From positions 45,479 through 109,478 of the IMG/VR virus record IMGVR_UViG_3300021511_000005: a DNA stretch of 64,000 nt; one strand, written 5' to 3'. Positions 37,953 to 59,271 of this stretch are shown here, piece after piece. Position 1 is the first letter of the stretch. Every line of letters begins with the position of its first letter. The notes beneath the pieces are model-generated. The model was not told the origin of the DNA and did no database searches. It worked only from the letters and a program-made list of their open reading frames with translations. The position numbers and the translations under genes are program-made. Source of the stretch: a virus.

Positions 37953-40900
37953 TTGTCCCATTACCTACGGAATCCCCTGATACCGGGGCAAGGCCCCAAG
38001 CTGGTGATAGGTATGCGGAACCTGCGGAACGATGTCCGCGTGGACACGTCTGCGCTGGCGGAGTTGACCCGGCCGCCGAAGCCCCTGGGCCGGCCGGTCA
38101 TACCCGGCGGGGAGCATGAGTACCGCTCCGCGGATGAGGTCGCCAAGGGTCTGGGACTCAACCACGACCAGGAGCGGGACTTTCTCCAGGCGATGAAGGC
38201 CTGGTTGAGCGAGCCCAACGTGGTGTCCTTCCGCAAGTCGCTGGTCCGCGGTCTGCGGAAGATGGCACCCGGCAACGGTCCGTTGCGTGGGGAGCTGGCG
38301 CGCCGGGCGGTTCAGGTCTGGAAGGCCACAAGGGGGAACCACCCCTCTCGGACCTACGGACGGGAGGGGCAGCCCCAGGACATCATCCGCAAGGCCAAGA
38401 AGGACAAGCCTATCAGCGGTCAGTTGGGGTTGTTTGGGGGGACGCTGCCCAAGGGCGTCACAGTGGGCAAGCCCAAGAAGCCCAAGAAGCAGGTGAAGGC
38501 CGCGGCGGCGAGTGCGGGCTGGCAGGCGATCCCCGCGGGGAAGCACGGCGGCCAGCGCCGGCGGAAGGGCAATAAGTGGGAGTACCGCTACCCCGATGGT
38601 AAGGGAGGCTGGTCAGGCCAGCCCCAGAAGGCTGAGCCCAAACCGGTGAAGGTCCCAGAGCTGAAGCCCGAGGCCCGGAAGATGGCGTACAAGGGCCTGC
38701 GGACCTGGGTCACCGCGAGCGGTCACGGGACGACCAAGGAGGAGCTGGAGCAGCGACTGGCCGCGGCGCTCGAGGCCCAGAAGCAGTCCGAGGTATTTAG
38801 CTTCAAGGTGACGCACGTCAAGCGGGAGAAGGCCCAGAAGCATGACGACGGCCGATCGGTCCCCGCCTATGACGAGTGGGACGTGGAGGTCGAGCACCAG
38901 GCTGCCATTCCCGGTCACCAGTTGACCGGCAAGATCGAAACGGCCACTGGCGTGGTGACGCTGTTCCACGACAAAGCTACCGTTTCCAAGGACGATTACG
39001 CGCGGGCGCAGAGGGGCGTCTGTGACGTCTGCAAGACCAAGCGTCGGCGGAATTCGGTCTTCGTGGTGCAGCGGGAATCCGACGATAAGCACTTGTTGGT
39101 GGGTGGAGAGTGTTCCAAGAAGTTCAAGGGGGCCAATCTGTGGCGGTTGGCCAACGCCATGGAGGAGGTGGACCTGGGCGGCGCCATCGCGGATGCCTTT
39201 GACGAGGGAGAGGGCTTCGGCGGTGGTGGTGGTGGCGGACCCCGGTCCGCGGAGCCCCACGATCTGCTGGGGACAGCGTTGTGGCTCGTCCGTAAAGAGG
39301 GCTATATCGGCGGCGCGGATGCAGATGCCGAGATGACCATGTCCACACCCGATCGGGTCAAGGAGATCCTGGCCGGGGGGAAGGCCGCCCCAACCAAGGA
39401 GGAGCAAGCCGAGATTGATCGGGAAGCCGAGCTGATCAAGAAGGACCTTCCCGAGATTCGGAAATGGATCCAGGAACGCATCCCCACGGACCCGGACGCG
39501 GTCATCACCAAGGACATCGCGTTTGCGGTGACGGTGGACAAGCTCCTGGGCTCCGATTTCATCGAGCCCAAGCACTTCAGCCGCGTGGTGTGGGTTCCAC
39601 ATCGCTACTACAAGATGGTTCAGCGGCGTGAACAGAAGGCGAAGGCCAAGCCCTACGAGGCTCCCCACGCCAAGATGCACAACCTCCCCGGTGAGTGGAC
39701 GATCTTGTCCAACACCGTCAAGGACTCGGACTACGGTTCCTACAACTCGGTGACCGCGATGGACGCGGAGGGACACAAGATCTGGTTCCGCCAGACAGAC
39801 GCCTACGATCTGAAGGAGGGGGACAAGGTCACGCTCCGCGGCAAGCTCAAGGATCAGAAGGACACCATCACGTTCATGTCCCACATGAAGGTGAAGAATC
39901 TGTCCGAGGAGAAGCGGCAGTCTGTGATCGAGGCCGAAGCCGAGGAGTTCCGCAAGGAGCGGGCGCGGCGGATGGCGAGTACGGATCCGAAGGAAATCGT
40001 CCAGGTCAAGATGCACGAGGCCTATGATCCAACACCAGGCGGCACTGAGCGCCAGTCGGCCTTCCGCAAGAAGCTGGTCAAGGCTGTGGTGGCTTTGATG
40101 AAGGAAGGCGCCGAGATCCCCCACGACGCCCTGTATACGACGTGGGATTACTTCGACGGCTACGGCGACGACAAACGACCCGAGAAGGAGAAGCGCGGGG
40201 ACCCGGTAGCCGCCGCGGCTACACGCCAGTATGCCAAGGTCCAGGCCGGCGAGAATCCGGTCAACGCCAAGGAGCTGTTGGAGCTGTTACCCGAGGTGGG
40301 GGCTCGCATGATCCGCAAGAAGTTGGGGGAAGAGGCAGCCAAGTGGATCTTCAAGCGGGCCGGCCTGGCCAAGTCCATGGATGATGATTTGGCGAGGCTG
40401 CGGCCGCGGATGATCCTTCAGCCCACGAGTCACCCTATGGAGCTGGTATGGATGGCCGAAGAGGTCCCGGACAATCTCCACGAGACCTGGAAGCGGATGC
40501 CTCCGGGTTGGCCGGCCGCCGATGAGATCCTCAAGGCGAAGTACTTCAAGCGGACGGGCTCGCCGGGAAACTACGTTTACTACTACAAGCGAGACGATGG
40601 ATCGGTCCAGGCCGTCCGCCAGAAGATGCACCCGGAGGGTGATCCTCGGAGGCGGGGTCCCTACAAGAAGACCAAGAACGCCAAGGGAGAGACCGTTTAC
40701 ACCGGCGGGGAGAAGCCGCCGGGCGCGGGCTGGGAGAAGATCCCGGAGAGTCCACACGGCGGGATGCGGCGGCCGGTGAGCGGCGGCAAGGTCCGTCAGT
40801 GGGAGTTCTGGTATCCGGGTGGGGGGGAGAAGCAGACGGCGATGTTCGGTGGTGGGGGTGCAGCCCCGCCGGCACCGGCGGCACCCGAAGCGGCCAAGGG

Positions 40901-43403
40901 TGGCCCGGTCAAGTGGTCCAAGACGGATGGCGGCTACGAAGCCCGCGGCGGCTCCATCAAGATCCGGAAGCAGGGCAAGAAGTGGGAGATGGTCTACTAC
41001 GGCGAGACCATCCCCATCACCACCAGGAAGCCGAGCTTCGACCACGCGGAGGGTTTGATTCGCGAGCGTGAGGCGCCAAAGCAGACCGACCTGTTCCGTG
41101 CCCTGATGGCCACGGGTCTCTTCGAGCTGCGGAAGGCGGCGGGGCACAAGTACTTGAAGCGGATCCCCACGGGCAAGCCCAAGCCCAAGTATCGCTACAT
41201 CTACCGCCAGCCCAAGGGTGGGCTCACCAGCTCCAGGGACATCCAGGCCGGCGCCAAATTCAAGGTGGAGCACGCCGGCAAGTTGGGTCACTTCGAGGTC
41301 AAGGGCCACGACGCCCACAACGGAATCGTGACGCTGCAGCATGACGAGTCGGGCAGGATCGCCCATATCCGGGAGAAGGACCTACACCGGATGATCACCA
41401 GCCACCACGAGAAGCAGACCAAGAAGGTTACCGAGAAGCCGGACGAGTTCGCGGCAGAGCGGGCGGAGCTGCGCCAACGGCTGGCCACGAGTGAGGCCAA
41501 GCGCCGGCGCGCGGAGAAGAAGGCCCCCAAGAAGCCGGAGGCCAAGGGGCCCGTTCCGGAGCTTCCGCGGGCGAGCCTGGAAGACCTGGGCAAGGGTGGC
41601 TACGACAAGATCGAGGGCTTCAGTGCCGACCCGAAGGATCTGGAGACGCAGGCGTCCCTGATGGGGGGCGATCGGGAGTATGCGATCATTCCCCAGGCCG
41701 GTGGTCACGTTCTGGCGAGCCGGGCCAAGGCCAGCGGGACGGTCAAGGAGGCCAAGGGAGACAAGGCGGAGCTGGTGATGCGGGGCTCCAAGGGCAAGAG
41801 CCTGGACAAGGTGGAGGTGGAGTACGTGGTGATGGAGGCCAAGGACCTGGTGGCCAGTCATGATCCCACAAGCTTCGAGCCCCGGGCGGCCTATCCCGAG
41901 GGCGTCCAGGAGCGGCGTTACGAGGTCCAGGGCTCCGGTGATCAGGGCAAGATCGATCGCATTGCGCGGGAAATGGAGCCGGCGCTGATGGTCAACACCA
42001 ATCCGTCCGCCATCGACGGGTCCCCGATGGTCACCGAGGAGGGGATCGTCCTGGGCGGCAACGGGCGAACCATGGGCCTGCAGCGGGCCTATCAGCTCTA
42101 TCCAGAGAAGGCTCAGGAGATGAAGGACTACCTGGCCAAGCATGCCCGCGGCTTCGGCGTTAGCTCCGCAGAGCTGTCCAAGATGAAGCAGCCGGTCCTG
42201 GTGCGGCGGATGAAGGCGGAGACCAAGGATCTGACCGCGCTGGGTCGGCGGATGAATGAGGCGCTGACCCAAGGCATGGACCCGCGGACCATCGAGGTCG
42301 CGCTGGGTCAGAACTACGTCACGCCCGAGCTGATGGACAGCCTCACCCACAACATGGACCCGGGCCAGTCGATGTCCGAGTTCCTGCGGACCGCCAAGTC
42401 CCGCCCCTTCGTGGAGGCGCTCGAGCGCGCCGGCGTTATCGACCAGTACAACAAGGACGAGTTCGTGGAGAAGGGAAAGGGTGTCCTGAACGAGGACGGC
42501 CGGATGCGGGTGGAGCGAGTTCTGACCGCTCGCATGATCCCGGATGCCAGCGCCTTGTCCCGGATGGGGACCAAGCTCCGGCAGACCATCGCCAAGAGCG
42601 TCCCTTCCCTGATCCAGATGGAGCGCAACGGGTGGAGCGTCCAGGAGGCGCTGGAGCTGGCCGTCAAGGTGGACAACGACATGCGGCTGGAAGGCTTCAG
42701 CGGCGGGACCCGGACGTCCAAGAAGGCAGGCGGCAAGATCAAGATCCCGATGTCCGAGCACCGCGAGTCCTACAGGCAGCAGCAGACCCTGGGGGACAGC
42801 CTTCAGCGCCAGATCGAAGGGAACCCGCTGGCCCAGCTCCTGCTCGAGACGATCCAGGACAAGGCGGACAAGAACATGCCGTCCAAGTGGCGTCAGGTGG
42901 CGCTCGAGGCGGATCGCCAACGGGCGCGCAAGGCCTCCGCCGGTGAAGCTAAGGGTCAGGCCATGCTGGGCGGCGAGGACATCGTGGAGGAGCGGTCCTT
43001 GGAGGACAGCATCCGCGGCGCGTTCGGGCTGAAGAAGCAGGCCCAGCAGGGTGGCCTGTTCGCCATGAGCCTCCCGGAGCCGGATCTGGTGAAGGCCGGC
43101 GCGGAGCTGACCAGCTACCTGATGCACGCGGTCTTGTGGGAGGTCGAGAACCTGATCCGCGGGGCGGTGGTGGACGGGAAGCCCCCGAGCGGCGGGCAGC
43201 TTTTGCCGCGGCTCCAGGCCTTCATCAAGGACCAGGCCGCGGCGGACCAGAAGTTCGCCCAAGCTTTGGGCGCTCATCCCCTGAGTTCGGAGGCCCTGAA
43301 GGGGCTCCTGAAGGCCTCCGCGATGTCACGATCGACAGACCTGGCCAAGAGCATGGCTCGCTCGAGCCTGCATGCCAGCTGGAGGGATTTGTATGCCGGC
43401 TAA
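37953..43403 (+). CDS. 1816-aa polyvalent head-associated protein (Zn-finger/OB module; DdrB-like ParB module)
   Basis: CDVC...RRRN.VFV...VGGEC and C-terminal OB-like strand set; YVVMEAKDLVASHD...QER.Y...DGSPMV...VLGGNGRTMGL...PVLVRR (DdrB-ParB). TTG start with AGGAGAGG RBS. Confidence 0.8.
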   Translation: MSHYLRNPLIPGQGPKLVIGMRNLRNDVRVDTSALAELTRPPKPLGRPVIPGGEHEYRSADEVAKGLGLNHDQERDFLQAMKAWLSEPNVVSFRKSLVRGLRKMAPGNGPLRGELARRAVQVWKATRGNHPSRTYGREGQPQDIIRKAKKDKPISGQLGLFGGTLPKGVTVGKPKKPKKQVKAAAASAGWQAIPAGKHGGQRRRKGNKWEYRYPDGKGGWSGQPQKAEPKPVKVPELKPEARKMAYKGLRTWVTASGHGTTKEELEQRLAAALEAQKQSEVFSFKVTHVKREKAQKHDDGRSVPAYDEWDVEVEHQAAIPGHQLTGKIETATGVVTLFHDKATVSKDDYARAQRGVCDVCKTKRRRNSVFVVQRESDDKHLLVGGECSKKFKGANLWRLANAMEEVDLGGAIADAFDEGEGFGGGGGGGPRSAEPHDLLGTALWLVRKEGYIGGADADAEMTMSTPDRVKEILAGGKAAPTKEEQAEIDREAELIKKDLPEIRKWIQERIPTDPDAVITKDIAFAVTVDKLLGSDFIEPKHFSRVVWVPHRYYKMVQRREQKAKAKPYEAPHAKMHNLPGEWTILSNTVKDSDYGSYNSVTAMDAEGHKIWFRQTDAYDLKEGDKVTLRGKLKDQKDTITFMSHMKVKNLSEEKRQSVIEAEAEEFRKERARRMASTDPKEIVQVKMHEAYDPTPGGTERQSAFRKKLVKAVVALMKEGAEIPHDALYTTWDYFDGYGDDKRPEKEKRGDPVAAAATRQYAKVQAGENPVNAKELLELLPEVGARMIRKKLGEEAAKWIFKRAGLAKSMDDDLARLRPRMILQPTSHPMELVWMAEEVPDNLHETWKRMPPGWPAADEILKAKYFKRTGSPGNYVYYYKRDDGSVQAVRQKMHPEGDPRRRGPYKKTKNAKGETVYTGGEKPPGAGWEKIPESPHGGMRRPVSGGKVRQWEFWYPGGGEKQTAMFGGGGAAPPAPAAPEAAKGGPVKWSKTDGGYEARGGSIKIRKQGKKWEMVYYGETIPITTRKPSFDHAEGLIREREAPKQTDLFRALMATGLFELRKAAGHKYLKRIPTGKPKPKYRYIYRQPKGGLTSSRDIQAGAKFKVEHAGKLGHFEVKGHDAHNGIVTLQHDESGRIAHIREKDLHRMITSHHEKQTKKVTEKPDEFAAERAELRQRLATSEAKRRRAEKKAPKKPEAKGPVPELPRASLEDLGKGGYDKIEGFSADPKDLETQASLMGGDREYAIIPQAGGHVLASRAKASGTVKEAKGDKAELVMRGSKGKSLDKVEVEYVVMEAKDLVASHDPTSFEPRAAYPEGVQERRYEVQGSGDQGKIDRIAREMEPALMVNTNPSAIDGSPMVTEEGIVLGGNGRTMGLQRAYQLYPEKAQEMKDYLAKHARGFGVSSAELSKMKQPVLVRRMKAETKDLTALGRRMNEALTQGMDPRTIEVALGQNYVTPELMDSLTHNMDPGQSMSEFLRTAKSRPFVEALERAGVIDQYNKDEFVEKGKGVLNEDGRMRVERVLTARMIPDASALSRMGTKLRQTIAKSVPSLIQMERNGWSVQEALELAVKVDNDMRLEGFSGGTRTSKKAGGKIKIPMSEHRESYRQQQTLGDSLQRQIEGNPLAQLLLETIQDKADKNMPSKWRQVALEADRQRARKASAGEAKGQAMLGGEDIVEERSLEDSIRGAFGLKKQAQQGGLFAMSLPEPDLVKAGAELTSYLMHAVLWEVENLIRGAVVDGKPPSGGQLLPRLQAFIKDQAAADQKFAQALGAHPLSSEALKGLLKASAMSRSTDLAKSMARSSLHASWRDLYAG

Positions 43404-46400
43404 CGTTGTGACGACTGGGACGGACGAGGCCCGGTGGGCCCGTGCGAAGGCAGCGGCGGCCAAGCAGGGAAAGGCCAAGAACTACGCGCTGGTGATGCAC
43501 ATCTACAAGCAGATGACCAAGGCGAAGGACCCGGATGAAGACGAGGGCGAGGCCCACAAGATGCCCATCCCGGGGATCCCCGCGAGCTGGAACAAGGGGG
43601 AGATTCTGACCGGTGGCGAGGGGGACAAGCGGCCGGACTCCGACTTTGACGCCACGGCGCTGAAGCAGGGGATCAAGGTGGAGTTCGAGCACACCACCAG
43701 CCGAGCGGTGGCGAAGGAGATCGCCAAGGACCACCTGACCGAAGACCCCCAATATTACAAGAAGCTGGCGACCATCGAGAAGGCGTTTCCAGGTCCGGCA
43801 GCTCCACCGGCGGGACATGCGGCCGGCGGCGCTCAGATTGGGGAGGTCCACGACTGGGGCCGGGGCAAGATGCGGAAGGTGGCTCCGGGTAAGTGGGAGC
43901 CGGTGACGGGGCCGCAGTCGGGGGCAAAACAGCAGCCCACAGGGCCAGAGCCAGCCACAGAGGGCACGGCGGACCATCACCGTCAGCAGGCCCTGGTCCA
44001 CACCCAGGCGGCCATGGCGCACGCCGTAGCTCACCAGAGCGCCAAGGAGCAAGAAGAGGCCGCCAAGCATGACGACAACGTCAGGGAGGCCAAGGAAGCC
44101 AGCCAGGAGGCTTACGAGGGCAAGGACGGCCGCCCGGTCGAGCCCCAGAGCCTGGAGGACAAGATCAAGGCTCTGATGGAAGAGCACGGCCAAGATGCGG
44201 TAGCCGCGGCTACCAGCAAGGCGGCCAAGGCCACAGCGGCCGGGCTGGACAAGGCTTTCCAGGCGGAGGCCAAGAAGGTGGCGGGCTCTGAGGGTGTCCA
44301 AGCGGCCGCCGGCGATGCCATCGCCGCGGCGGGCATCAAGAAGGGCGGAGAGGCTCCTAGCAAGTCTCAGGTGGACCAGGCGGTCAAGCACGCAGCCCAG
44401 GACCCCAACGTCAAGAAGGCGGCCCGGGATGGGCTGAAGGCGCTTGAGGGCCCCGGCGCGGACGCCTTGGTGTCGGGACTCGAGGCCGCGGTTCCGCCGG
44501 AGGAAAAGAAGAAGGCGAGCTGGAAGACCAAGGCGGCCGCGGTGGCCAAGATGATGATCCGGCCGTTTGTCTTCGGGTTCGTGGATAACTTCGTGATGTA
44601 TGTCGCGGGTTCCGCGGTGGACGGCGCTGTCCAGGGCGCTGGCTTCAGCTCTGCGGCCACGGCGGGGATCGGCAACGCCATCTCTGACGCGGTGGGCGAG
44701 ACCGCTGGCGGCTTGCTCGAACGGGCTCTACCGGACGAGGAGAAGCTGAAGGCGGAGCTGGGCAAGGACACCTACGAGAAGATGGAGAAGTTCCTGCAGC
44801 CGCTGGGGGTCTTTACCGGCGCGCTGCTGGGGATGATTCCGTTGGCCTTCGGGGTATCCTTCGGTAAATCTATGCGGCGGGAGATGGACATCCAGAAGGC
44901 CAGAGCCAAGGTCGCCGCGGGGCAGATGGGCTTCCAGTTTGGGGCGGCGAAGCCGGCCGGCGGCGGCGAGGGTTCGAGGGGTGGCGAAGTTGTGGGTCAC
45001 ACGGCCAGCGGCAAGGCCATTTACAAGAAGAAGGTCGCGGACCACGAGGCCAAGGCCAAGGAGCATGCCACCGCGGCAGCCAAGGCGACGGACCACGGTG
45101 TTCGGACCAAGCATTTGCACGCGGCCAAGGCTCACCAGGTTGCCGCGTCAGCCCACCGTATTGGGCACAAGGACGCGGACAAGGTGAGCACGGGGGCGGA
45201 AGGTTACAGCCGGCGAGCCCATCGGGCGCGGCCGACAGCGCCCCAGCGTCCTAAGCTTCAGCGGCCCACGTCTGCGGACCGTCCGCCGGGGATGCGAGCG
45301 AGGGCACCGGCAGCCAAGAAGGTGTCACAACCACACGCACAACCGGGCTCCGGCTCGCACCTGCAATTCTCAATGGAGGACAACATGGACATGAACAAGG
45401 CCGAGCTGCGGAAGTCTCTGATCAGTTTCCGCGGTCTGCGGAAGGGGCTGTACAACCGCGTGACCGAGTGGGCCGGTCAATTCATGGGGACGCCGCTGTA
45501 CGTGGAGGCGTTGCGCTGCCTGAAAGAGAAAGCCCAGTGCGACAAGGAGGCGGAGGCCACGCGGGCCAAGCATAAGTCTTGGCGTGAGCTGGAGGAGCTT
45601 CCGCGGAGTCGGCGCCAGGAGATGCGGAAGAAGCAGGACAAGGCCATGGACGTCCACCACCAGCGCAGCAGCAAGATCCTAGCGAAGATGGACGGTTTGG
45701 AGGAGAGGCTTCTGGACCACCAGATCGCGGAGGCGGAGCGGATGGGCAAGGGCGACGTGGACAAGGCCACGCCGATCAACCTTCCGGTGATCAAGTCCAC
45801 GGACGCTGTTGTCGAGGGGTTGGAGGAGCTGTTCAAAGCCGGCCAAGCGGCTGGACCTTTCCGCGGTCCCAAGGGTGGGCTGTGGGCTGATCCCGAGCAC
45901 AAGGTCCCCTATAAGCCGTTGGCGGGCAAGACGTCCAAAGCCGGACACAAGGGGGCCCACAAGGCTCATGTGATTCACCACGAGCGGGAGGCGGTCCGCG
46001 CGCGCAACAAGGGCAACGAGAAGGTGGCTGGCGCGCACCTGGACGCGGCGGACGCCCACAAGGTCGCGATGAAGGCCAAGCCCACTACGCTTGCGCGAGA
46101 GGCTGCCTATTCGGCTACCAAGAAGGCGAGTCACGACAAGGATCGGGCAATCCGGAAGCAGGCCTCGCACGTCAATAGCCACAAGGACCACGGGCATTAT
46201 GCCGCCCGGCTCCGCAGCTCGGCGGAGGAGGCCAAGCAGATGGGGATCGGCTCCCATGTAGACAAGTTGGCCCGGCAGCACGAACAGGCCAGCTCCGCCC
46301 ACAAGCACGCTGCGGAGATGCACGGTAAGGGGCACGAGTCCGCGGATGACCACAGCAAGGTGGCAGCCAAGGCCACGTCCACGGCCTTCGGGGATCCCAC

Positions 46401-49998: not shown

Positions 49999-52900
49999 TT
50001 GGCCCTGTTGACACCAGAACAGCTGGAGCAGCTGCGGCGCGCCATTCAAGACGCATCGACCGCCGTGGCAATCTCCACCGTGGGCCACACGGTCACGGAT
50101 GACGAGCTGCAGCGGCTGGTGGACGAGGGCTGGGTGGATCCCGATAAGGTAGACGACGTCGTCATGACGGGTTTCCAGTACGGTAATCTGTTGAGCCACC
50201 TTCCCCGGGCCGCGGACATGGGCCTGGGGGCCTTCATCAAGGAGATCCAGCGGAACCCGATCAAGCTGTCCGCCGCGGAACGCCAGGCCGTCCAGATCGC
50301 GAGGGACCGTGCTGGCCAATACTGCGCGGGCCTGGGCTCGAGGTACAACGAAGAGATGGGCCGGATGGTGGTGGAGGCGGACGCCCAGCTGGCCAAGGTT
50401 ACTCGAGAGTTGATTGCTGACGAGACCGCCAAGAACATCGCCACACGCGGGACGCGGAAGCAGCTGGGTCAAACCCTGGGCAAGTTGACCCGCGACTGGG
50501 CCCGCGACTGGCGCCGAATCGCTAATACTGAGATTCATATGGCCCAGCAGGAGGGCTACCTGGAGGACGTCCGCGAGCGTTACGGGGACGATGAGCTGCT
50601 GGCCAAGATCCCCGAGCCCAACGCTTGCAAGCATTGCAAGCGGCTCTACCTGGATGGCGATGGTCAGCCCATCGTCCGTCCGGCGTCTTGGTGGGCAGCT
50701 CAGGGGGCGAGCAACGCCGGCCGCAAGGCTGCGGACTGGCTCCCCGTCCTGGGAGCGATGCACCCCTGGTGCCAGTGCCGGATGATCCGGGTCCCGGCGG
50801 GCTGGAAGCTGGACGGCGAGTTTCCCGACTGGGACTTGGTTCCCGAGGGCCTGGAGACGGAGAAGTCCCGAGTCGCGGATACTGCGACACGGGACCAGCT
50901 CGAGAAGGCCAAGAAGCCCACTCAGATGGGTTTCGCCTGGGAGCCTGCTCCGAAGTCCCGGAAGGGTGCGGAGCGGCGCAGGCTGCCCGGTGGGGGCTAT
51001 GAGTACCGCTATCAGACTCCGGTCCGCGCGGAGACCCGGAGGAAGGTCCACGGGGCTGAAGACCTGGCCGCGGTCACGTCGATCTTCGTCAACGTGTCCG
51101 GCGGTTCCGAGCGCAAGCGGTTTGTTCCGCAGGAGGAAGGCGAGGGCGTGGACATCGCGTCCAAGAACGTCCACGCCCAGATCACCGCCCACGAAGTCCC
51201 CAAGACCGACAAGGGCCGGTCCCGCTTCGCCAAGCTGGCGAAGGAGCGCGGGATGCGACTGATGATCGACTCCGGCGAGTTCGGCCGTTTCGGTAAGGAG
51301 CTGCGGGAGTACAAGAAGGCGGAGAAGGAGGAGCGGGAGCCGGTGGTTCCGGAGCTGGACTTCAACAAGGTCTTCGACAACTACGAGGCCATGGCCAAGC
51401 TGTTCCCCGCGGGGAAGCTGACCGTGGTGGCGCCGGACCGCATCGCGAACCCGGACAAGACCGCGGAGCTGCGGAAGCAGTACGCCGGGCGAGTCAAGGC
51501 ACTGCAGGCCGGCGGTGCGGAGGTCATCGTTCCAATCCAGGCCCGGTCCGCAGAAGAGATCGGGAAGGACTACATCGCGGCGACCAAGGTCTTCGGGGAG
51601 GACGTGACGCTGGGCTTCCCCACAGCGGCCGCGGTTCTGCCGATGGAGGAGATCCTCCCGGCGATGGCCCAGCTCTACGCTCACGGCAAGTTCCCGCGGA
51701 TCCACTTCCTGGGCGGCGGACGTCCCCGGGAGATGGCGGAGCGGACGGCGCAGCTCGTGGCAGCGGCCTACTTCGCCGGCCAGGGCGTGGCGCCGGAGCG
51801 TGTCCTGGAGCTGACCAAGACCGCGGACCTGGCAGCCCGCGCGCTACGGAACGTCAAGACCGCGGACATGGTCCTGGGGCGCGAGGCGGACGAGGCGCTG
51901 TCCGCGCGGTTCGAGGCATGGGCGGAGGAGCAGGGCCTGGACACCAGCGATCCGGACTTCGACGAGACGGAGGCCTGGCCCGACTTCTACGAGGCTCACC
52001 CGGAGGAGTTCAACCTGGAGCTGGACAGTGAGGATAAGCCGAAGTTGTTCCGCAAGATGGCCGCGGACCTGGTGCAGATGGACAGCCGCGTGGTGGGTTC
52101 CGCGCAGCAGTACGGTCTCCAGCACGACCCGATCACCGGGACGCAGATCAAGGCGGGGAAGAAAATCACGGCGCTGCCCAAGGCGGAGCGCCATCCGGCC
52201 ACGCTGCAGGCCTATTTAGAGGCTCGCGAGCATCAGACCGAGCGCTTCACCCCGCCGGCGATGTCCGCCTGGGAGGCTCTGTGGGGCGATTTTGAGAAGG
52301 TGGAGAAGGTGGAGAAGTCGCGGAAGCTCCACGGTCGGCGGAAGTTCCAGGGCTTCGATATCTCGATCGAGAACCGGGTGGGTTCAGTCCGTCACTGGTA
52401 CGACAAGGCCACGGACACGAAGGGCGAGACCAAGATGGTCAACCCCTACGGCTACATCCGTCTGACTGAGGGAACCGACGGCGACCATGTGGACGTCTTC
52501 CTGGGAGAGGACGAGCAAGCGCCGCGGGTTTACGTTATCCATCAGATGAAGGCCCCGAGCTTCACCGAATACGATGAGGACAAGTGTATGTTGGGGTTTC
52601 CGTCGGCGCGGGCGGCCAAGGCGGCCTACCTTCGCCACTTCGACAGTCCCAAGTTCTTCGGCTCGATGACAGCGCTTCCCGTGGAGGAGTTTCGCAAGAA
52701 GGTCTACAAGATGAAGGGCGAGCTGATCAAGGCGGGAGGGACCTACTCCGGATACGCCTCTGGTTCCCAGCCGCGGTCCACGTCGATCGTAGGAACCATG
52801 GGGCAGCATGATCGGAAGGCTCCACGGACGGCCGGGGCCAATGTTCGCGAGAACCGGGCGGATCACACCGAGGACTGGCCGCCCTATCAGGAGCGGCGGA

Positions 52901-53208
52901 TCCGCAAGGTCCGCAAGGTGGTCTCCGCGGAGGGAGCCGCCGATCCGGTCCTGGCAGGGGTGAGCCTGACCCAGCTCGTGGCCGCCGCAGAGCGGTTCAA
53001 CGTCCGCGGGCTTCAGCAGAGCCACGACTGGGCCAACAAGCCAAAGCTGGACCGTTGTCCGGACCTGAACGAAGCTGTGGCCCGGACGGACGCGGGCAAG
53101 AAGAATCTGGAGACCGTCGAGGAGATAGGACGCCAGCGGCGGAAGACCGCGGCGGGGGCGCGTTTGACGCTGAACCCCAAACTGATCCGAAGGGAGCAGA
53201 AGCGATGA
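49999..53208 (+). CDS. MuF-like head morphogenesis protein fused to TGT/DpdA-like barrel and polyvalent-type inorganic pyrophosphatase (InPase)
   Basis: RDWRRIANTE...ACKHCKRLY...MHPWCQC (MuF-like); IDSGEF...VAPDRIAN...VIVPIQ...IHFLG...DS; ISIEN.VGSVR...PYGYI..TEGTDGDHVDVFLG...YDEDKCMLGF (InPase). Confidence 0.8.
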   Translation: MALLTPEQLEQLRRAIQDASTAVAISTVGHTVTDDELQRLVDEGWVDPDKVDDVVMTGFQYGNLLSHLPRAADMGLGAFIKEIQRNPIKLSAAERQAVQIARDRAGQYCAGLGSRYNEEMGRMVVEADAQLAKVTRELIADETAKNIATRGTRKQLGQTLGKLTRDWARDWRRIANTEIHMAQQEGYLEDVRERYGDDELLAKIPEPNACKHCKRLYLDGDGQPIVRPASWWAAQGASNAGRKAADWLPVLGAMHPWCQCRMIRVPAGWKLDGEFPDWDLVPEGLETEKSRVADTATRDQLEKAKKPTQMGFAWEPAPKSRKGAERRRLPGGGYEYRYQTPVRAETRRKVHGAEDLAAVTSIFVNVSGGSERKRFVPQEEGEGVDIASKNVHAQITAHEVPKTDKGRSRFAKLAKERGMRLMIDSGEFGRFGKELREYKKAEKEEREPVVPELDFNKVFDNYEAMAKLFPAGKLTVVAPDRIANPDKTAELRKQYAGRVKALQAGGAEVIVPIQARSAEEIGKDYIAATKVFGEDVTLGFPTAAAVLPMEEILPAMAQLYAHGKFPRIHFLGGGRPREMAERTAQLVAAAYFAGQGVAPERVLELTKTADLAARALRNVKTADMVLGREADEALSARFEAWAEEQGLDTSDPDFDETEAWPDFYEAHPEEFNLELDSEDKPKLFRKMAADLVQMDSRVVGSAQQYGLQHDPITGTQIKAGKKITALPKAERHPATLQAYLEAREHQTERFTPPAMSAWEALWGDFEKVEKVEKSRKLHGRRKFQGFDISIENRVGSVRHWYDKATDTKGETKMVNPYGYIRLTEGTDGDHVDVFLGEDEQAPRVYVIHQMKAPSFTEYDEDKCMLGFPSARAAKAAYLRHFDSPKFFGSMTALPVEEFRKKVYKMKGELIKAGGTYSGYASGSQPRSTSIVGTMGQHDRKAPRTAGANVRENRADHTEDWPPYQERRIRKVRKVVSAEGAADPVLAGVSLTQLVAAAERFNVRGLQQSHDWANKPKLDRCPDLNEAVARTDAGKKNLETVEEIGRQRRKTAAGARLTLNPKLIRREQKR

Positions 53209-55259
53209 ATTGGGACACCTGGCTGGACAATTTGGTGGGACCGAAGTTGGTCTTGGACCTGGCGAAGGCGAAGCGGAAGGCCGCAGAGGGTCAGATGGGC
53301 CTGTTCGATCAACCGGCGAAGCCCGCCGCGAAGCCAAAGCCCAAGGCTCCAGCGGCCAGCGGCTGGCAGGCGATCCCCGGCGGCAAGAAGGGCGGCCAGC
53401 GGCGGAAGCAAGGCGGCAAGTGGGTCTATCGTTACCCGGACGGCAAGGGTGGCTACAGCTCGAGCCCGCCCAAGCCCAAGGCGAAGCCCAAGGCGAAGCC
53501 CGAGTCCGCGCACCGGGTCCCCACGTCGGGCGAGTTCGACGGGCGGACCAAGCCCTATCCGAGGCACTCAACGCTTGAGATCGGCCGGGGCTTCGATGCC
53601 CAGCACATCAGCGGACCCAAGGCGATGCCTGGGGATCACTGGACACACTCCCTGGCAGCCGATCCCAACGCGACGATGAAGATCTTGTCCCAGCGGTTTG
53701 ATCGGTACGGTCAGTGGAGTTACGTCGTGGAGTACGCCAGTGGCAATACCGGCGTGGTTCCCGAGCACAGCTTGAAGTCCATGAAGGCGAAGCCCCGAGG
53801 CGATAAGTCCGCGTCAGCTCCGAAGCCGAAGCCGTCCAAGGTCAAGCTCGAGCCGGCCAAGCCCGCCGGTCCGGAACGCCGGATCGCAGAGCGGTGGATG
53901 GCGATGAACCAGCGGGAGAAGATGGCCAATCTCCAGGAGCTGGGGCAGCAGAAGGGGATGAGCCTCATCTACGACGGGAAGAACTACATCGTTTCCCAGG
54001 GCAAGGACCACAAGGTCGCGGTGGGCTCCATCGCGGAGGCCAAGGACCTGATCCAGGCCGGCTCCGTCAAGGGGGCCAAGCCGGTCCCTGGGACCACAAG
54101 CTGGACCAAAGCGCCCGGCGGCGAGACCCTGGCCGTCACGGACAAGGCGGGCTTCGCGATTGCGAAGGACAACACCGTGACCAAGGTGGAGGGGAAGAAG
54201 AAGACCACCGTGGGCAAGTTCGAGTCTGAGCCGGAGGCGGTCCACGCGGTCAAGCAGGCCGCTGCGCCAAAGCCCAAGCCCAAGCCGAAATACAAGTTGG
54301 CGCCGGTCGAGCACTACGACGGCTATGGACCCAACGCATGGCGCGGCGCCAAGTCGGGAAAGCTGGGAGCCAAGGAGACCACGGCCGCGGTTCGCAAGGA
54401 GATCAAGCAGGCCCAGGCCGCGGGATGGCTCCCGGAGGGTGTGAAGGTCAGCGTGTCCCACGAGGGCTACGCCGGCGGCTGGTCCATGAATCTGAAGATC
54501 AAGGAGCTACCTCCGGGGATGATGCTCTACGAGGCCGCGGATTATGACGAGTTCGAGCATCGGTATGAGACGCCGTCCGAAGGGGGCAAGGTCCCGGTCA
54601 TGCGTCCGGAGATCGCGGACATGATCAAGAAGATGGAGCAGATTGCGGATCAGTATAACTACGATGACTCCGATTCCATGACCGACTACTTCAATCGCGG
54701 ATTCTACGTCCACAGCGGCGTGGGTCATGAGTTGGACAGTCTCCATCGGACGATGGCGTTGGATCCGGCCAAGGGTGTTGTCTTGGGCTCCGCGGCCCAG
54801 GCTCTCAAGACTCGCGACTTGGGGGACATTCAGGACGCTTTGGTGGGCTATCACGGCTCCGGCATGGACAAGGACGAGCGCGGACCTTGGGGGCTGGGTC
54901 AAGACCTGCGGAAGGTTCTGGCGGACAACTTGGGCGAGCTGGCTGGGCAGCACGGAGGGAAGCTCCAATCCGAGAAGACCCAGGCGCAGTATCGCTCCAA
55001 GGGCTTTCCGCCGAGCAGGATCCGCCAGATCTACGGCTTTGAGACGGAGGCCGGCGCCGAGAAGTTCTACGAGCTGGTGGCGGGCTTAACGGGCGCGGAC
55101 TGGGAGAACCCGGCCCCAAGAGATATGCGGGTGGTGCGGATGGGGCACCAGGTGGACCTGGTCAACATCCCGCTGGATGTCCCCAGCAAGCGGAAGGGCC
55201 ACAAGGCCAAGAAGAAGGTGAAGAAGTCCATGGAGCCGAGGCTTGTCCTCCACGTCTAA
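53205..55259 (+). CDS. 684-aa polyvalent protein with LPD29-like domain
   Basis: ATGA-coupled start (MNWDTW); ETTAAVRKEIK...VKVSVS...YAGGWSM...YNYDDSDSMTDYFNRGFY. Confidence 0.75.
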   Translation: MNWDTWLDNLVGPKLVLDLAKAKRKAAEGQMGLFDQPAKPAAKPKPKAPAASGWQAIPGGKKGGQRRKQGGKWVYRYPDGKGGYSSSPPKPKAKPKAKPESAHRVPTSGEFDGRTKPYPRHSTLEIGRGFDAQHISGPKAMPGDHWTHSLAADPNATMKILSQRFDRYGQWSYVVEYASGNTGVVPEHSLKSMKAKPRGDKSASAPKPKPSKVKLEPAKPAGPERRIAERWMAMNQREKMANLQELGQQKGMSLIYDGKNYIVSQGKDHKVAVGSIAEAKDLIQAGSVKGAKPVPGTTSWTKAPGGETLAVTDKAGFAIAKDNTVTKVEGKKKTTVGKFESEPEAVHAVKQAAAPKPKPKPKYKLAPVEHYDGYGPNAWRGAKSGKLGAKETTAAVRKEIKQAQAAGWLPEGVKVSVSHEGYAGGWSMNLKIKELPPGMMLYEAADYDEFEHRYETPSEGGKVPVMRPEIADMIKKMEQIADQYNYDDSDSMTDYFNRGFYVHSGVGHELDSLHRTMALDPAKGVVLGSAAQALKTRDLGDIQDALVGYHGSGMDKDERGPWGLGQDLRKVLADNLGELAGQHGGKLQSEKTQAQYRSKGFPPSRIRQIYGFETEAGAEKFYELVAGLTGADWENPAPRDMRVVRMGHQVDLVNIPLDVPSKRKGHKAKKKVKKSMEPRLVLHV

Positions 55260-55506
55260 GCTCCCCCGTTGTAGCTGCAACCAGCGGCTGTTCTACAAGT
55301 CCGCGGACGGCGCCGTCCGCTTGCGGTCCGCGGTCCTGGTCTTCAAGTCGGGGCGGGCCCTGGCTATCTGCCCACGATGTAAGGGGGAAGTCCCCGTGGA
55401 CCTGGCCTTGGGGGAGGGCCTGCGGAAGGCCCTGGACCAACCTCCGCGGAAGTTGGTCCTCCGCGACTTGCGGAAATGTCTTGACGATCCGGAATCCGCC
55501 CAGTAG
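55243..55506 (+). CDS. zinc-ribbon protein (Mu Com-like)
   Basis: RCSCNQRLF...ICPRCK. Confidence 0.55.
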   Translation: MSSTSKLPRCSCNQRLFYKSADGAVRLRSAVLVFKSGRALAICPRCKGEVPVDLALGEGLRKALDQPPRKLVLRDLRKCLDDPESAQ

Positions 55507-55509: not shown

Positions 55510-55531
55510 CTGACTCACGTCCCGCGTGGCC

Positions 55532-55546: not shown

Positions 55547-55569
55547 CTTGGGCATGGGAAGAGAACCCC

Positions 55570-56376
55570 ATGGCCAACCATCCTTCAGAGATACCGTTTC
55601 ACTTCGAGCTGCCCATAGAGGTATGGGAGAAGGCTGGCGATCCCGGCAAGGAGCGGCGGATCGGCGGCGTTATCTCTTCTCAGGACAAGGACCGCCAGGG
55701 CGAGGTTGTCCTTCAGCGCGGTCTGGACTTCTCCGAATTCATCGATCACGGGTGGTTCAACGATAACCACAGCAAGGATACGACGGGGATCGTCGGTTAC
55801 CCGGAGAAGGTGGAGAAGCGGACCATCAACGGGCGCCCCGAGCACTACGTGGAAGGCTATCTGCTGCGGGGTTTCGATAAGGCGGACGAGATCTGGAAGT
55901 TGGCTCAGTCGCTTCAGAAGACCAACCGCCGGCTGGGCTTCAGCATCGAGGGCTCCGTGATGAGGCGGGAAGGGCTCGACGGAAAGACGATTGCCCAGGC
56001 CAAGGTCCGCAACGTGGCGATCACGAATTGTCCGGTCAACACGTCCACGGGTCTCGAGATTCTGGCCAAGAGTATGATGGCCATGGAGTCCGAGGGTGAT
56101 CAGTCCGCGGCGGCCCACAGATGCTGGGGGGAGGGCGACTGTTGTGGAAGCTGCGAGACCGCGGACGCCGAGAAAGCGATGTCCGCTGGTCAGGCGGTGA
56201 GCGACCCGGGCGCATCTCCGGGCGAAGGCTTCGCGTTGCGGACCGAATCCATGGAAAAGAAGCCTAAGCGACTGACCAAGGCGGAGGCGATCAAGTTCCT
56301 TCAATCCCGTTATCGCGATCTGTCCAAGGCGGACGCGGAACGAATCTATCGCCACGCGGTCAAGATGGCCGCGTAA
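55570..56376 (+). CDS. prohead (capsid maturation) protease, HK97/U35-like
   Basis: DRQGEVVLQRGLD, NDNH, IVGYP, YVEGYL, LGFSIEG, VAITNCPVN. Confidence 0.9.
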   Translation: MANHPSEIPFHFELPIEVWEKAGDPGKERRIGGVISSQDKDRQGEVVLQRGLDFSEFIDHGWFNDNHSKDTTGIVGYPEKVEKRTINGRPEHYVEGYLLRGFDKADEIWKLAQSLQKTNRRLGFSIEGSVMRREGLDGKTIAQAKVRNVAITNCPVNTSTGLEILAKSMMAMESEGDQSAAAHRCWGEGDCCGSCETADAEKAMSAGQAVSDPGASPGEGFALRTESMEKKPKRLTKAEAIKFLQSRYRDLSKADAERIYRHAVKMAA

Positions 56377-56386
56377 GGAGGATCCA

Positions 56387-57796
56387 ATGGCGGACGAGAG
56401 CAGGCAGTTGACCCTTGACGACCAGGCGGCAGAGCTGGCGGCGACGATGAACTTCGACGGCGCGGGTGCCCCGCTGGAGAAAGGGGGAGCCGCCGGCGAT
56501 CTGCCCGAGGGGCAGACCAGCGCGGAAGGCGGTTTCACCCAGGACGCCGGGGGCCAGGTTATCACGGCGGGCGTGGAAGGCGCGGTCAACAAGGGGGGCC
56601 AGACGGGCTCCCAGATGACGAGCGAGCCGGGCGCGCAGAACCAGAACCCCAAGACCGGCCGCGCCATGAGTGGCGAGCCCGGCGCGGACGCGGGCGGCGG
56701 AGCCGGCACCGGTGGCAACCTGTCTCAGGATGGGGATGCCAGCACCCGGGCGCGGAAGCCCGGCCAGGTGGGCGTCAGCGGCGGTTCCACTGGCGGCGGA
56801 AACTTGTCGGAGTCGGAGGACGACAAGATCCGTGGACGCAAGGCTGGGAAAGTCGGCATCTCCAAGGCGGAGGCCATCGAGATGGGTCTGTCCAAGGCCC
56901 AGTACGACGCCATGATGGCCAAGGGCCTGATCAAGGCGGAGGTCGAGGAGGATGACGAGGTCGAGGACGAGGAGAAGGGCTGCAAGAAGTCCGTCTCCGC
57001 CGGCGACTTGATGAAGTCGCTGGACACGCTCGAGGCCGTGGCCTCCGGTGCGGGGATCCCCACTACGGAGGATCGTCGGGTGGAGCTGGCCAAGGGCTTG
57101 GAGGCCGGTCAGCTGACTCAGGACGAGATGGTGGAGCTGGCGGACCTGATGAAGGCTGCGACCAGCTCCGACGAGGACGAGGACGCCCTGGTCAAGGGCG
57201 GCGATGTGGACGAGCTGGACGGCGTGGTCGATGAGGTCCAGGACCTGGACGATATGGACAAGAGTTTCCAGGAGCAGTTCGCAGACGCAGAAGCGGACCA
57301 CGACACCTACGACATCAGCCCCTACCTGGAGAGACTTCACCAGTCCACGGCGGCGGCGCTGGACCAGATCCAGGGCAACCTTCAGAAGGCGATGGACGTC
57401 CAGGGCAGCAACCAGCGCAACTTCAACGTCAACCTGGCCAAGAGCTTGAAGGGTATGGCTCAGTTGGCCCAGGACCAGGGGGAGCTGATCAAGAGCCTGA
57501 CGGACCGGCTGGAGCATGTCGAGAACCAGCCTCTCCCCCGCATTGGGGCGACCAGCGTCCAGCAGCTCCAGAAGTCCATTCCCAACGAGGCGACCGGAGC
57601 CGGTGGCAACGGTCTGAACCGGACCCAGATCTTGGACGCCATGACGGACATGGCGTGTCGCCAGGAGATGGCCCCCTGCGGGGAGAAGTTGGACCGCGCG
57701 GTGGCGATGTTCGAGTCCAGCGGCCAGCTCAGCAAGTCGCTGTACCGGGACGTCCAGAACTTCATCAAGAGCAACGGAATGGTCCAAGTCCACTAG
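56387..57796 (+). CDS. capsid scaffolding protein
   Basis: Between protease and MCP; acidic and Gly-rich; more than 15 hydrophobic-x-K-[A/S/G] sites. Confidence 0.75.
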   Translation: MADESRQLTLDDQAAELAATMNFDGAGAPLEKGGAAGDLPEGQTSAEGGFTQDAGGQVITAGVEGAVNKGGQTGSQMTSEPGAQNQNPKTGRAMSGEPGADAGGGAGTGGNLSQDGDASTRARKPGQVGVSGGSTGGGNLSESEDDKIRGRKAGKVGISKAEAIEMGLSKAQYDAMMAKGLIKAEVEEDDEVEDEEKGCKKSVSAGDLMKSLDTLEAVASGAGIPTTEDRRVELAKGLEAGQLTQDEMVELADLMKAATSSDEDEDALVKGGDVDELDGVVDEVQDLDDMDKSFQEQFADAEADHDTYDISPYLERLHQSTAAALDQIQGNLQKAMDVQGSNQRNFNVNLAKSLKGMAQLAQDQGELIKSLTDRLEHVENQPLPRIGATSVQQLQKSIPNEATGAGGNGLNRTQILDAMTDMACRQEMAPCGEKLDRAVAMFESSGQLSKSLYRDVQNFIKSNGMVQVH

Positions 57797-57837
57797 GGCT
57801 GGCCTCCACATAACGAACCTGAACGAAGGAGAGGATC

Positions 57838-59271
57838 ATGGGAGACAACGCATTTGTGAGCTGGCGAGACTACGAAGGTCTCGACGGCTTCGGCGCGGCC
57901 AGCCAAGCGGACGTCCAGGACCTGCGGAAGGCGCTTGCCGCGGGCCAGGATGTCAACAACCCGGGCACGGCCGCCGGTGAGGGCTTCCCGCTCCGCATCG
58001 AGTCGCTCGAGCGGACGCTGAAGGTCGTCACGTATCGCATGGACGATGTCCGCCTGTGGCGGAACATCACCAAGCTTCCGGCCTACAACACGGTCGAGGA
58101 GTACAACCGGCTGAGGAGCTACGGCTCCGGGGACGGAAACGCTTTCATCGCGGAGGGCAACCTCCCCGAGACGGACGATTCGACCTACAGCCGTGAGTTC
58201 ACCATCATCAAGTACCTGGGCACCACCCGGAGCGTGACGCACGTCATGTCCCTGGTGCGACCGGCCCATGGTCCGGTGGTGGCCCAGGAAACCATCAACG
58301 GGACTGCCTGGCTGCTCAAGCAGATCGAGCGGGCCCTGTTCTTCGGGGACTCGTCCCTGGTGCCGGTCCAGTGGGACGGGCTCGACGTGTTGATCACGGC
58401 GGGCGCGCCGGCGGCCAACATCATCGACCTGCGGGGTCAGCCGTTGTCGGAGGATGTCCTCAACGATGGCGGTTTGACGGTCAAGACCGCCCCCAACTAC
58501 GGGCGGGCGACCGACCTGTACCTGGCCGATGGCGCCTACAGCGACCTGGCCAAGTCCTTCTACCCGGCGGAGCGCTACAACATCCCGCCCGGCGGCTGGA
58601 CTGATGGAATGGTGGGGATGCAGATCAAGGGCTTCCACAGCATGGTCGGCCCCATCATGTTCAACCCGGACGTCTTCGTCGAGTTCGGCGCGGCCCCGGC
58701 CGCGGCAGCGGTTGGCGCGGCGGCCACCAGGCCGGGTACCCCGACCGAGGACGTGGCCCCTGCGGCCGCCGGCACGGGTTCCCAGTTCACCGCGGCGGAC
58801 GCCGGCGACTACAACTACAAGGTGGTCGCCATCAACCGGTACGGCAAGAGTGCAGCGCTGGCTCTGACCGGTCCGGTGACGGTCGCCACGGGTGAGCAGG
58901 TCACCTTCTCGATCGGTGACGGTTCCCCAATCGCCACGGCCTACGAGGTCTACCGCAGCCCGAAGGACGGCGCGGTGGGCACCGAGAAGCTGGCCTTCAC
59001 CACGGCATGGACGGCGGATCCGACGGTCATCACCGACACCAACGCCTACTTGCCGGGGACGAGCACGGCATTCCTCGTTCAGCAGAACGTGGAGTTCTTC
59101 TCGTTCAAGCAGCTGGCCCCGTTCGTGAAGATCCCGCTCGCCACGATCGACACCAGCATCCGTTGGATGCAGTTGATTTACGGCGCGCCGACGGTCTACG
59201 CGCCGGGCAAGTCCGTGATTTACCGGAACGTTGGCCGTGCGGTCGGTTCCGTGGGTGGCGGCGGCGCCTAG
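57838..59271 (+). CDS. major capsid protein (Herelleviridae-like)
   Basis: DLRK|ALAAG, LRIESLE, PAYNTVEEY, AFIAEG, IKYLGTTRSV, IERALFFGDSSL, QWDGL, IIDLRG, YNYKVVAINRYGKSA, QLAPFVKIPLA. Confidence 0.9.
   Translation: MGDNAFVSWRDYEGLDGFGAASQADVQDLRKALAAGQDVNNPGTAAGEGFPLRIESLERTLKVVTYRMDDVRLWRNITKLPAYNTVEEYNRLRSYGSGDGNAFIAEGNLPETDDSTYSREFTIIKYLGTTRSVTHVMSLVRPAHGPVVAQETINGTAWLLKQIERALFFGDSSLVPVQWDGLDVLITAGAPAANIIDLRGQPLSEDVLNDGGLTVKTAPNYGRATDLYLADGAYSDLAKSFYPAERYNIPPGGWTDGMVGMQIKGFHSMVGPIMFNPDVFVEFGAAPAAAAVGAAATRPGTPTEDVAPAAAGTGSQFTAADAGDYNYKVVAINRYGKSAALALTGPVTVATGEQVTFSIGDGSPIATAYEVYRSPKDGAVGTEKLAFTTAWTADPTVITDTNAYLPGTSTAFLVQQNVEFFSFKQLAPFVKIPLATIDTSIRWMQLIYGAPTVYAPGKSVIYRNVGRAVGSVGGGGA

Follow-up and report, generated by a model that had tools for sequence, protein, structure and literature searches.

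The window analysed here is the final 64 kb (64,000 nucleotides) of the IMG/VR virus record IMGVR_UViG_3300021511_000005 (109,478 bp, linear, estimated 97% complete), and it contains the head module of an uncultured phage in which four giant proteins are encoded between the terminase and the prohead protease. On balance it is probable, judging from sequence comparisons, that the prohead protease cuts these giant proteins at a few conserved junctions into separate modules of head cargo. The predicted cleavage motif, hxK↓[A/S/G] (h, hydrophobic residue; x, any residue; ↓, cut), saturates the scaffolding protein, and its lysine is kept at module boundaries of the giant proteins even in stretches of low identity. 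The guanine-cytosine (GC) content of the window is 62-68%, and the credible genes, including all those described below, are located on the + strand. The head genes extend from 35.8 to 59.3 kb in the order terminase large subunit, 1816-amino-acid (aa) protein, 1409-aa protein, portal, two small open reading frames (ORFs), MuF-InPase fusion of 1069 aa, 684-aa protein, 87-aa ORF, protease, scaffold and major capsid protein (MCP). The position of the giant genes between terminase and protease is conserved in related loci.

The cleavage motif is present in the MCP (477 aa, 57838..59271; phrog_752, 6.8e-92), which is 39% identical over 95% of its length to the MCPs of SPO1-like phages and of CP-51 and matches PDB entry 9vel (SPO1 gp6.1) at 1.6e-83. 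Its maturation cut is predicted in DLRK↓A after K31 (codon 57928-57930). In the alignment, K31↓A32 falls on K24↓S25 of phi812, for which the deposit 9row (439 aa) starts at S25 of the 463-aa precursor, and also on the LNK↓A sites of SPO1 gp6.1 and CP-51 (K26). An initial annotation, made from the letters of the window, had placed this site at the end of an MCP leader, and this is supported by the alignment with the mature N-terminus of phi812 and the site in SPO1 gp6.1. The sites listed in that annotation are all present in the sequence, coordinates included, among them DLRK↓A of the MCP (K31 at 57928), the 17 sites of the scaffold and those named for the four giant proteins.

For the comparison of head proteins with other proteins, [LIVMF]xK[ASG] was counted in 69 called proteins, and the composition expectation, whole-protein shuffles and local 20-aa shuffles were used as controls. 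The scaffolding protein (469 aa, 56387..57796; phrog_15087) has 17 sites where 1.8 are expected (p=0.0005 in local 20-aa shuffles), and 17 of its 27 lysines are part of a motif. Decoy motifs with R, E, D, Q, N, T or H at P1, the residue before the cut, remain at expectation, so that the signal is specific for lysine. The 1409-aa protein likewise shows a lysine-specific excess (20 sites vs 7.7 expected, p=0.0005, local-composition shuffles included), and its pooled homologs contain 83 sites with 33 expected. The excess is mild in the portal (5 sites, 1.5 expected), in the protease (4, 1.1 expected) and in three small ORFs of the head module (5, 1.3 expected); the 87-aa ORF (55243..55506), which has a homolog at the same place in the related loci L005 and L047, carries 3 sites (0.5 expected). 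The 58 non-head proteins together contain 29 sites vs 30.2 expected and are thus not enriched.

The same signal was found outside the window. Four close relatives have portals with 56-64% identity. In L005 the scaffold has 14 sites (1.5 expected), 8 of them at the same positions as in the window scaffold and the others shifted nearby. About 60 more distant metagenomic loci were selected for homologous portal, MuF, protease and MCP, and every one of their scaffolds contains 5-11 sites with about 1 expected. All scaffolds and all proteases of the related loci show the signal; the pooled proteases have 73 sites vs 15 expected, while the pooled terminases have 27 vs 23. In the cultured Bacillus phage CP-51 (L068, NC_025423.1 4543-23895) the scaffold has 13 sites vs 1.4, covering 13 of its 22 lysines, and the protease has 9 vs 1.4. 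From these sequences, hxK↓[A/S/G], often with D or E at P4, is very probably the specificity of this protease lineage. A protease with such a preference would explain the signal in scaffold and protease, including that of the approximately 60 loci and of the cultured Herelleviridae phage. No paper stating a motif for a Herelleviridae protease was found in the literature that was searched.

The prohead protease itself (268 aa, 55570..56376) matches phrog_1028, 'head maturation protease', at 2.5e-44; sequence searches gave no Pfam and no PDB match. Its H67 and S125 are at least 90% conserved among 16 homologs. With the profile match and this His/Ser pair it fits the prohead serine proteases (HK97 gp4/T4 gp21 type). 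Candidate self-cut sites are K21 (55630), with the motif kept in 15/16 homologs, and K167 (56068), which lies after the catalytic core and is kept in 10/16. The C-terminal tail of the protease (56146-56286) is similar to MCP residues 22-69 (57901-58044), with 43% identity and an E-value of 4e-8, and this copy of the MCP N-arm that follows the maturation site may serve to position the protease in the prohead and to free it afterwards. In the relative L005 the aligned site reads LRR↓A. The portal (569 aa, 47632..49341; Pfam Phage_portal, phrog_12) has a candidate N-terminal trimming site after K26 (47707), where the motif is found in 14 of 21 homologs; its other sites are not conserved.

Of the giant proteins, the 1816-aa polyvalent protein (37953..43403) has a Pfam ddrB-ParB match at residues 1285-1421 (41805-42215) with 2.5e-21. 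Homology to DdrB of phage P1 reaches past the ParB-like core and covers residues 1285-1795; in tblastn, query residues 227-735 matched ddrB of P1 and its relatives with 24.8% identity at E-values of 3e-11 to 6e-11. The sites listed as conserved junctions are K147 (38391), K807 (40371), K1061 (41133), K1714 (43092) and K1799 (43347). The C-terminal 777 residues were aligned with nine relatives (40-49% identity), and columns with the lysine motif were compared with columns of decoy motifs. At K1061 the motif is present in 10/10 sequences, at K1714 in 7/7 despite a flanking column identity of 0.25, and at K1799 in 5/6 with a flank identity of 0.24; K1507 (1/10) and K1548 (2/10) are not conserved. 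Decoy motifs with R, E, D, Q or T at P1 were conserved only where the flanks are conserved as well (0.59-0.80) and never in regions of low identity. In an AlphaFold2 (AF2) model of the 777-aa segment with a predicted local distance difference test (pLDDT) value of 75.7, K1061 and K1714 lie in segments with pLDDT <50 between folded units. In L015 the homology stops at the DLRK↓A that matches K1714. A tighter motif modelled on the MCP site, [DE]hxK[ASG], occurs 6 times in the 1816-aa protein with 1.3 expected (p=0.001, local-composition shuffles), namely at residues 65, 861, 1061, 1214, 1714 and 1799, so that the conserved sites K1061, K1714 and K1799 are all included, and 7 times in the 1409-aa protein with 1.0 expected. 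A Foldseek search of the 777-aa model against the PDB returned nothing at E<=0.001 and only weak Tudor and ParB rows.

Directly after K1061 follows a module of approximately 100 aa (41136-41432), here called AGHKY after its start [AG]AGHKY..R.P, which continues with [YW]RYxY, a GHFEV-like strand and HDE[ST]G and whose invariant residues are A, G, H, K, Y, Y, Y, G, H and D. The block of AGHKY and ParB is found anywhere from residue 123 to residue 1882 in the proteins of relatives. Pfam has no family for the module. A profile beginning at P1′, with the lysine left out, was run against 1.84 billion cluster representatives and matched 691 proteins at E<=0.001, all of them metagenomic and with up to four copies per protein; the cluster names of eight proteins that were looked up are all 'hypothetical' or unnamed. 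In the 186 copies of the best 150 of these 691 proteins, P1 is K in 175 and P3 is L, V, I, M, F or W in 176, while P2 and P4 vary. Among the same 186 copies, 77 start within 80 residues of the N-terminus, behind Met-led leaders of 7-79 aa. The AGHKY copies closest to the N-terminus have Met-led leaders of down to 11 aa, and the longer leaders share a stretch reading EIPxWM..LL. Neither 50,697 deposited phage genomes, where only the ParB part was recovered, nor a pattern scan of 185,579 prokaryote genomes (52 pattern matches) contained a relative of the AGHKY module, and ESM Atlas scores of <=0.81 were uninformative. Foldseek aligned this part weakly with barrels of the Tudor type (probability 0.87-0.99, TM of about 0.5-0.6, E near 1), which hints at a fold made up of a beta-hairpin and a Tudor-like barrel.

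The invariant H, K, Y, H and D right behind the junction could also be taken as a sign that the junctions are cut by another enzyme, be it an internal peptidase domain, the AGHKY module by autoproteolysis or a host protease after ejection, and processing of polyvalent proteins driven by MPTase domains has indeed been proposed by Iyer et al. (PMC5512222). Pfam searches of the four giant proteins (E up to 0.01) and of their unassigned stretches (E up to 1) revealed no peptidase or MPTase domain. Autoproteolysis by AGHKY was given a low rank, since the folds that Foldseek matched weakly serve in binding and are not those of peptidases, and the same motif saturates scaffold and protease, which points to one enzyme. 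A cut by a different enzyme is accordingly regarded as very improbable.

The MuF-InPase fusion (1069 aa, 49999..53208) contains a Pfam InPase match at residues 778-901 (52330-52701) with 2.2e-35. Its candidate junctions are K303 (50905) after MuF, followed by a tag segment at 50908-51021, and K773 (52315) and K911 (52729), which bracket InPase. K773 is positioned five residues before the Pfam match; the motif is kept in 4/4 relatives, and the identity jumps from 0.29 upstream to 0.72 downstream exactly at this site. K911 is kept in 5/5 relatives, ten residues past the InPase match at the end of the alignment. An AF2 model of the whole fusion, built from a 5-sequence alignment, reached a mean pLDDT of 41 and was usable only for the MuF core and InPase.

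In the 684-aa cargo protein (53205..55259) a match to phrog_1926, 'released from the phage upon host infection' (2e-7), fits packaging in the head. The protein has a 21-aa leader ending in LVLDLAK↓A (K21, codon 53265), followed by a tag at 53268-53450 that consists of QMGLF and a GW..YRYP hairpin; a C-terminal VKK↓S is located at 55224. This arrangement of leader and pentapeptide recurs across the clade. In a listing of long ORFs a 734-aa frame takes the place of the 684-aa protein and overlaps the MuF gene by 154 nucleotides (53055-53204). The ATG at 53205 is the likelier start because it overlaps the MuF stop codon (ATGA) and yields the conserved leader.

The 1409-aa protein (43393..47622) is rich in Lys, Ala and His, and Pfam DUF5661 (43654-43782) and a TMEM65-like membrane domain (44563-44850) were assigned to it. 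The membrane domain is flanked by sites, and tags are found at 44899-44952 and 45838-45912. In its motif content this protein resembles a second scaffold or an inner-body protein, and it would be heavily cut. Modules are shuffled among the giant proteins of relatives; in L003 and L004 the DUF5661 piece is part of the MuF fusion. With MuF-like and InPase domains in one protein, DdrB-ParB within the 1816-aa protein and the TMEM65-like domain, the description of the giant genes in the initial annotation as polyvalent genes of the head module was borne out, while Pfam gave no match for the domains it had labelled OB/Zn, TGT-like and LPD29.

Besides the AGHKY junction a second form was recognized, in which a leader RLV[LI]DLxK is followed by the cut, by A(E) and then by the pentapeptide Q[LM]x[LM]F. 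Cargo ORFs of the clade contain 31 copies of the pentapeptide, where 0.8 would be expected, and it is absent from terminase, portal, MCP and protease. In 21 of the 31 cases a cut-motif site lies at most 25 residues upstream, usually exactly 3. The copies in the window follow K147 of the 1816-aa protein (38418-38435), K21 of the 684-aa protein (53289-53303), K303 of the MuF fusion (50923-50937) and K502 of the 1409-aa protein (44920-44934). QLGLF, QMGLF, QLDLF and QLSLF are the variants behind junction sites. After a Pro/Lys linker follows either GW..IP.G..GG.RR..W.YRYP or GPF[IV]GPRGGKWADP.H..PW, and these two types of tag are exchanged at the same position in relatives. GPF[IV]GPRGGKWADPxHxxP[WY] was seen at 45838-45912 of the window and also in L004, L005 and L006. 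The tag segments, like AGHKY, gave no useful Pfam match, here at E up to 10. The pentapeptide and the AGHKY module are undescribed and widespread. Moreover, a strand-like element, GP[KR]L[VL][LI] or RLVLDL, recurs at cargo termini and just before junctions, for instance as RRLVIDLRK↓AEQLSLF in relatives. It is located at 53235-53267 and 55230-55256 (N- and C-terminus of the 684-aa protein) and at 37992-38012 (N-terminus of the 1816-aa protein). The RLVLDL-type motif may be the part of the leader that serves capsid targeting or protease docking.

The Q[LM]x[LM]F peptides fit QL[SD]LF, which we take to be the consensus of bacterial beta-clamp-binding peptides (Dalrymple). A gene for a phage processivity factor is present at 10304-11359 of the window (phrog_947, 2.3e-24), and its product was co-folded with residues 22-62 of the 684-aa protein, which gave a score of 0.52 with 0.00 for the best of three controls. 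Of 78 solved complexes 51 pass this test, as do 2 of 108 mismatched pairs; passes with a score of <=0.60 were obtained for only 5 of the 78 solved complexes and for all 4 passing mismatches. At least 25% of contacts are common to the runs, and the pLDDT of the partner is at least 41. Since clamp-peptide complexes have already been solved, the pass may reflect memorized structures. Binding of the QLxLF tag to the sliding clamp is thus faintly suggested by the model and is offered as a lead.

Several results weigh against cleavage of the giant proteins. With the loose motif [LIVMF]xK[ASG], the 1816-aa protein has 15 sites vs 9.3 expected, which is marginal, and decoys with R, E and T are raised alike; in the pooled 1816-aa-like proteins the enrichment is 1.32-fold for K, compared with 1.33 for Q and 1.24 for T. 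The MuF fusion has 4 sites vs 3.9 and the 684-aa protein 2 vs 4.2, and the strict motif [DE]hxK[ASG] is mildly raised in non-head proteins too (10 vs 4.2). In the AF2 model of the 777-aa segment K1507 lies inside a confidently folded stretch (block pLDDT 84) and K1548 in a confident helix; K1787 and K1799 lie in C-terminal helices, and of these K1787 is counted here. Residues 340-700 of the MuF fusion could not be mapped, the model being too poor. The hxK before AGHKY and the EIPxWM..LL stretch upstream of it are both conserved and may form a structural or binding element that stays uncut. The relatives which carry the giant genes are known only as metagenomic contigs, and large head cargo is sometimes packaged uncut, as in the case of N4 vRNAP and P1 DarB (PMC5512222, PMC9024508).

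Bulk motif density was rejected as evidence for the 1816-aa, MuF and 684-aa proteins, being either not lysine-specific or at chance level, and most loose-motif matches in these three proteins are inseparable from chance by density. The expected excess in head over non-head proteins was confirmed for scaffold and 1409-aa protein, mildly for portal, protease and three small head ORFs, marginally for the 1816-aa protein, and failed for the MuF fusion and the 684-aa protein. The caution in the initial annotation that KA dipeptides are common in linkers rich in Lys and Ala was warranted for three out of the four giant proteins. Of the roughly 40 sites that it had listed in giant proteins, most cannot be distinguished from chance, and some are inside folded domains. 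The placement of sites at module boundaries held for K1061, K1714, K1799, K773, K911 and K21, which are conserved and lie at homology breaks or in linkers of low pLDDT; it did not hold for K1507 and K1548, unconserved and within predicted helices.

These counts can be extended to the view that all matches beyond MCP and scaffold are functionless and arise by composition in Lys/Ala-rich sequence. The loose-motif counts in the MuF, 684-aa and 1816-aa proteins agree with it, as does the pooled enrichment close to that of Q and T. It does not account for the results of local-composition shuffling (1409-aa protein, p=0.0005; 1816-aa protein with the strict motif, p=0.001), for site-specific conservation in low-identity flanks, or for K at P1 in 175 of 186 AGHKY copies from the best 150 of 691 proteins, a position that was not part of the search profile. 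The chance reading is contradicted for the conserved junction sites and true for most of the non-conserved matches; as a general explanation it is improbable.

More weight is given to the alternative that the giant proteins enter the head as whole chains and that the junction, leader and tag included, is a capsid-targeting or capsid-binding element that is recognized and left uncut. The substrates of the protease would then be limited to MCP, portal, scaffold, the protease itself and possibly the 1409-aa protein. Conservation on both sides of the lysine (EIPxWM..LL upstream, invariant AGHKY downstream) is as such an element would have it. Precedents are P1 DarB, of which the N-terminal 30 residues target cargo to the head and which is found as a 250-kDa protein in virions (PMC9024508), and N4 vRNAP, which is packaged unprocessed (PMC5512222); three of the four giant proteins, moreover, lack bulk enrichment. 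However, the junction has the same P4/P3/P1/P1′ signature as the MCP site, with DLRK↓A verbatim in both, while P2 and P4 vary freely. InPase is bracketed by sites as well, yet no AGHKY module adjoins it, and K1714 is conserved in a linker that is otherwise unconserved and of low pLDDT. Packaging of the giant proteins as uncut chains is therefore considered possible, if doubtful.

Cleavage at conserved junctions, the preferred reading, would proceed in the following way. The protease, with H67 and S125, would cut behind the lysine of (D/E)-hydrophobic-x-K↓A/S/G and so follow a scheme like that of T4 in which Lys replaces Glu. It would take the 31-aa leader off the MCP and approximately 26 aa off the portal and trim itself; its tail, as a copy of the MCP N-arm, would sit where the MCP N-arms sit in the prohead. 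The scaffold with its 17 sites and much of the scaffold-like 1409-aa protein would be shredded, while the 1816-aa, MuF-InPase and 684-aa proteins would be cut at few conserved junctions and not at every motif match. Each junction would consist of an RLV[LI]DLxK-type leader and the cut, with a tag behind it in which the QLxLF peptide and a basic linker of Pro and Lys lead to either a beta-hairpin or the AGHKY hairpin with its Tudor-like barrel. Modules freed in this way, among them DdrB-ParB, InPase and the membrane domain, would remain in the head and exit with the DNA. We infer packaging, cleavage, ejection and protease specificity alike from sequence; for packaging of the giant proteins, the position in the head module, the fusion to MuF and the homology to P1 DdrB (PMC9024508) are the supporting points. 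A wider scheme, a 'cut-and-tag' cargo system shared by a large clade of uncultured phages, is put forward as conjecture and with more doubt than belief: modules would be strung together in giant head proteins with a Lys-cut leader at each junction, and an adaptor tag of QLxLF and hairpin or Tudor-like barrel would hold each module in the head and then guide it to host or phage DNA loaded with the clamp.

The similarity of capsid, protease, scaffold and portal is best explained by a lineage that also built the heads of Herelleviridae. Herelleviridae, an ICTV family, have genomes of 125-170 kb and Firmicutes hosts (PMC7414437). The phage is taken as a relative of this head lineage and not as a member of the family because of its genome size of 109,478 bp and its GC content of 62-68%. 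Downstream of the head genes, near the contig end, a glycosyltransferase-like ORF was noted at 62030-63355 (phrog_2170, 9e-14).

If cleavage is confirmed, polyvalent proteins punctuated internally by a head-protease motif, the cassette of leader, cut and tag, and the AGHKY family would be new. One head protease would then both mature the capsid and free a set of injected effectors, which would join the head processing of T4 and phiKZ with Aravind's polyvalent proteins, so far kept apart. The motif (D/E)-h-x-K↓[A/S/G] together with leader and tag would provide a rule for spotting cargo units in metagenomic phages, and the leader-plus-tag cassette would be a candidate for loading foreign proteins into capsids, as has been done with the targeting sequences of T4 and P1. 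The scaffold result stands on its own and suggests hxK↓[ASG] specificity for Herelleviridae-type proteases; as CP-51 is saturated with the same motif, this specificity can be checked in existing isolates.

The designation as an undescribed delivery system, as proposed initially, is overstated in view of the processing in T4, phiKZ and SPN3US (PMC10052503), of the Dar proteins of P1 (PMC9024508) and of the polyvalent proteins described in 2017 (PMC5512222). In T4 the internal proteins IPI-III and Alt carry short N-terminal leaders ending in hydrophobic-x-charged, gp21 cuts at (L/I)xE↓, and the same protease breaks down the core of the scaffold and also trims the MCP; the cargo is injected with the DNA (PMC9026906, PMC5512222, bioRxiv 10.64898/2026.03.04.709575). 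The system of the window differs in having Lys instead of Glu at P1, giant multi-domain cargo, internal junctions in addition to leaders and a conserved tag, and in being known from sequence alone. In phiKZ, SPN3US and 201phi2-1 (gp175/gp245), many head proteins including portal and protease are cut at a three-residue consensus, propeptides contain multiple copies of the motif, and a large protein mass is packaged and ejected (PMC10052503). In SPN3US, however, N-terminal propeptides are taken off by 13 of 14 mapped cuts, Glu is the last residue of the motif and no effector polyproteins are described (PMC10052503), whereas the sites described here separate recognizable effector modules.

The relation to P1 lies in the likeness of residues 1285-1795 of the 1816-aa protein to DdrB. 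DdrB and DarB are head proteins of P1, DdrB having been detected as such by LC-MS/MS; a targeting sequence is located at the N-terminus of DarB, and DarA is believed to undergo processing (PMC9024508). According to the part of the review by Iyer et al. that cites earlier work, DdrB is cut to about 76 kDa (PMC5512222). P1 belongs to another head lineage, with an MCP cut after E120, its Dar proteins are encoded by separate genes, and according to a prediction by Iyer et al., DdrB is processed by an MPTase domain at its C-terminus. The polyvalent proteins of Iyer, Burroughs, Anand, de Souza and Aravind (2017) combine several effector domains per polypeptide in genes adjoining those of the virion. 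Typical constituents are MuF, DdrB-ParB and InPase, and module orders are shuffled between relatives, all of which applies to the giant proteins. Their processing was assigned to MPTase, common though not obligatory (PMC5512222), whereas a head-protease motif and an undescribed tag are found here. Finally, phi812/K, SPO1 and CP-51 of the Herelleviridae share homologous MCP, protease and scaffold, and the MCP cut after lysine, predicted for the window, falls in the same alignment column; the phage of the window differs from them in its 109-kb genome with 64% GC and in the four giant cargo genes that are located inside its head module.

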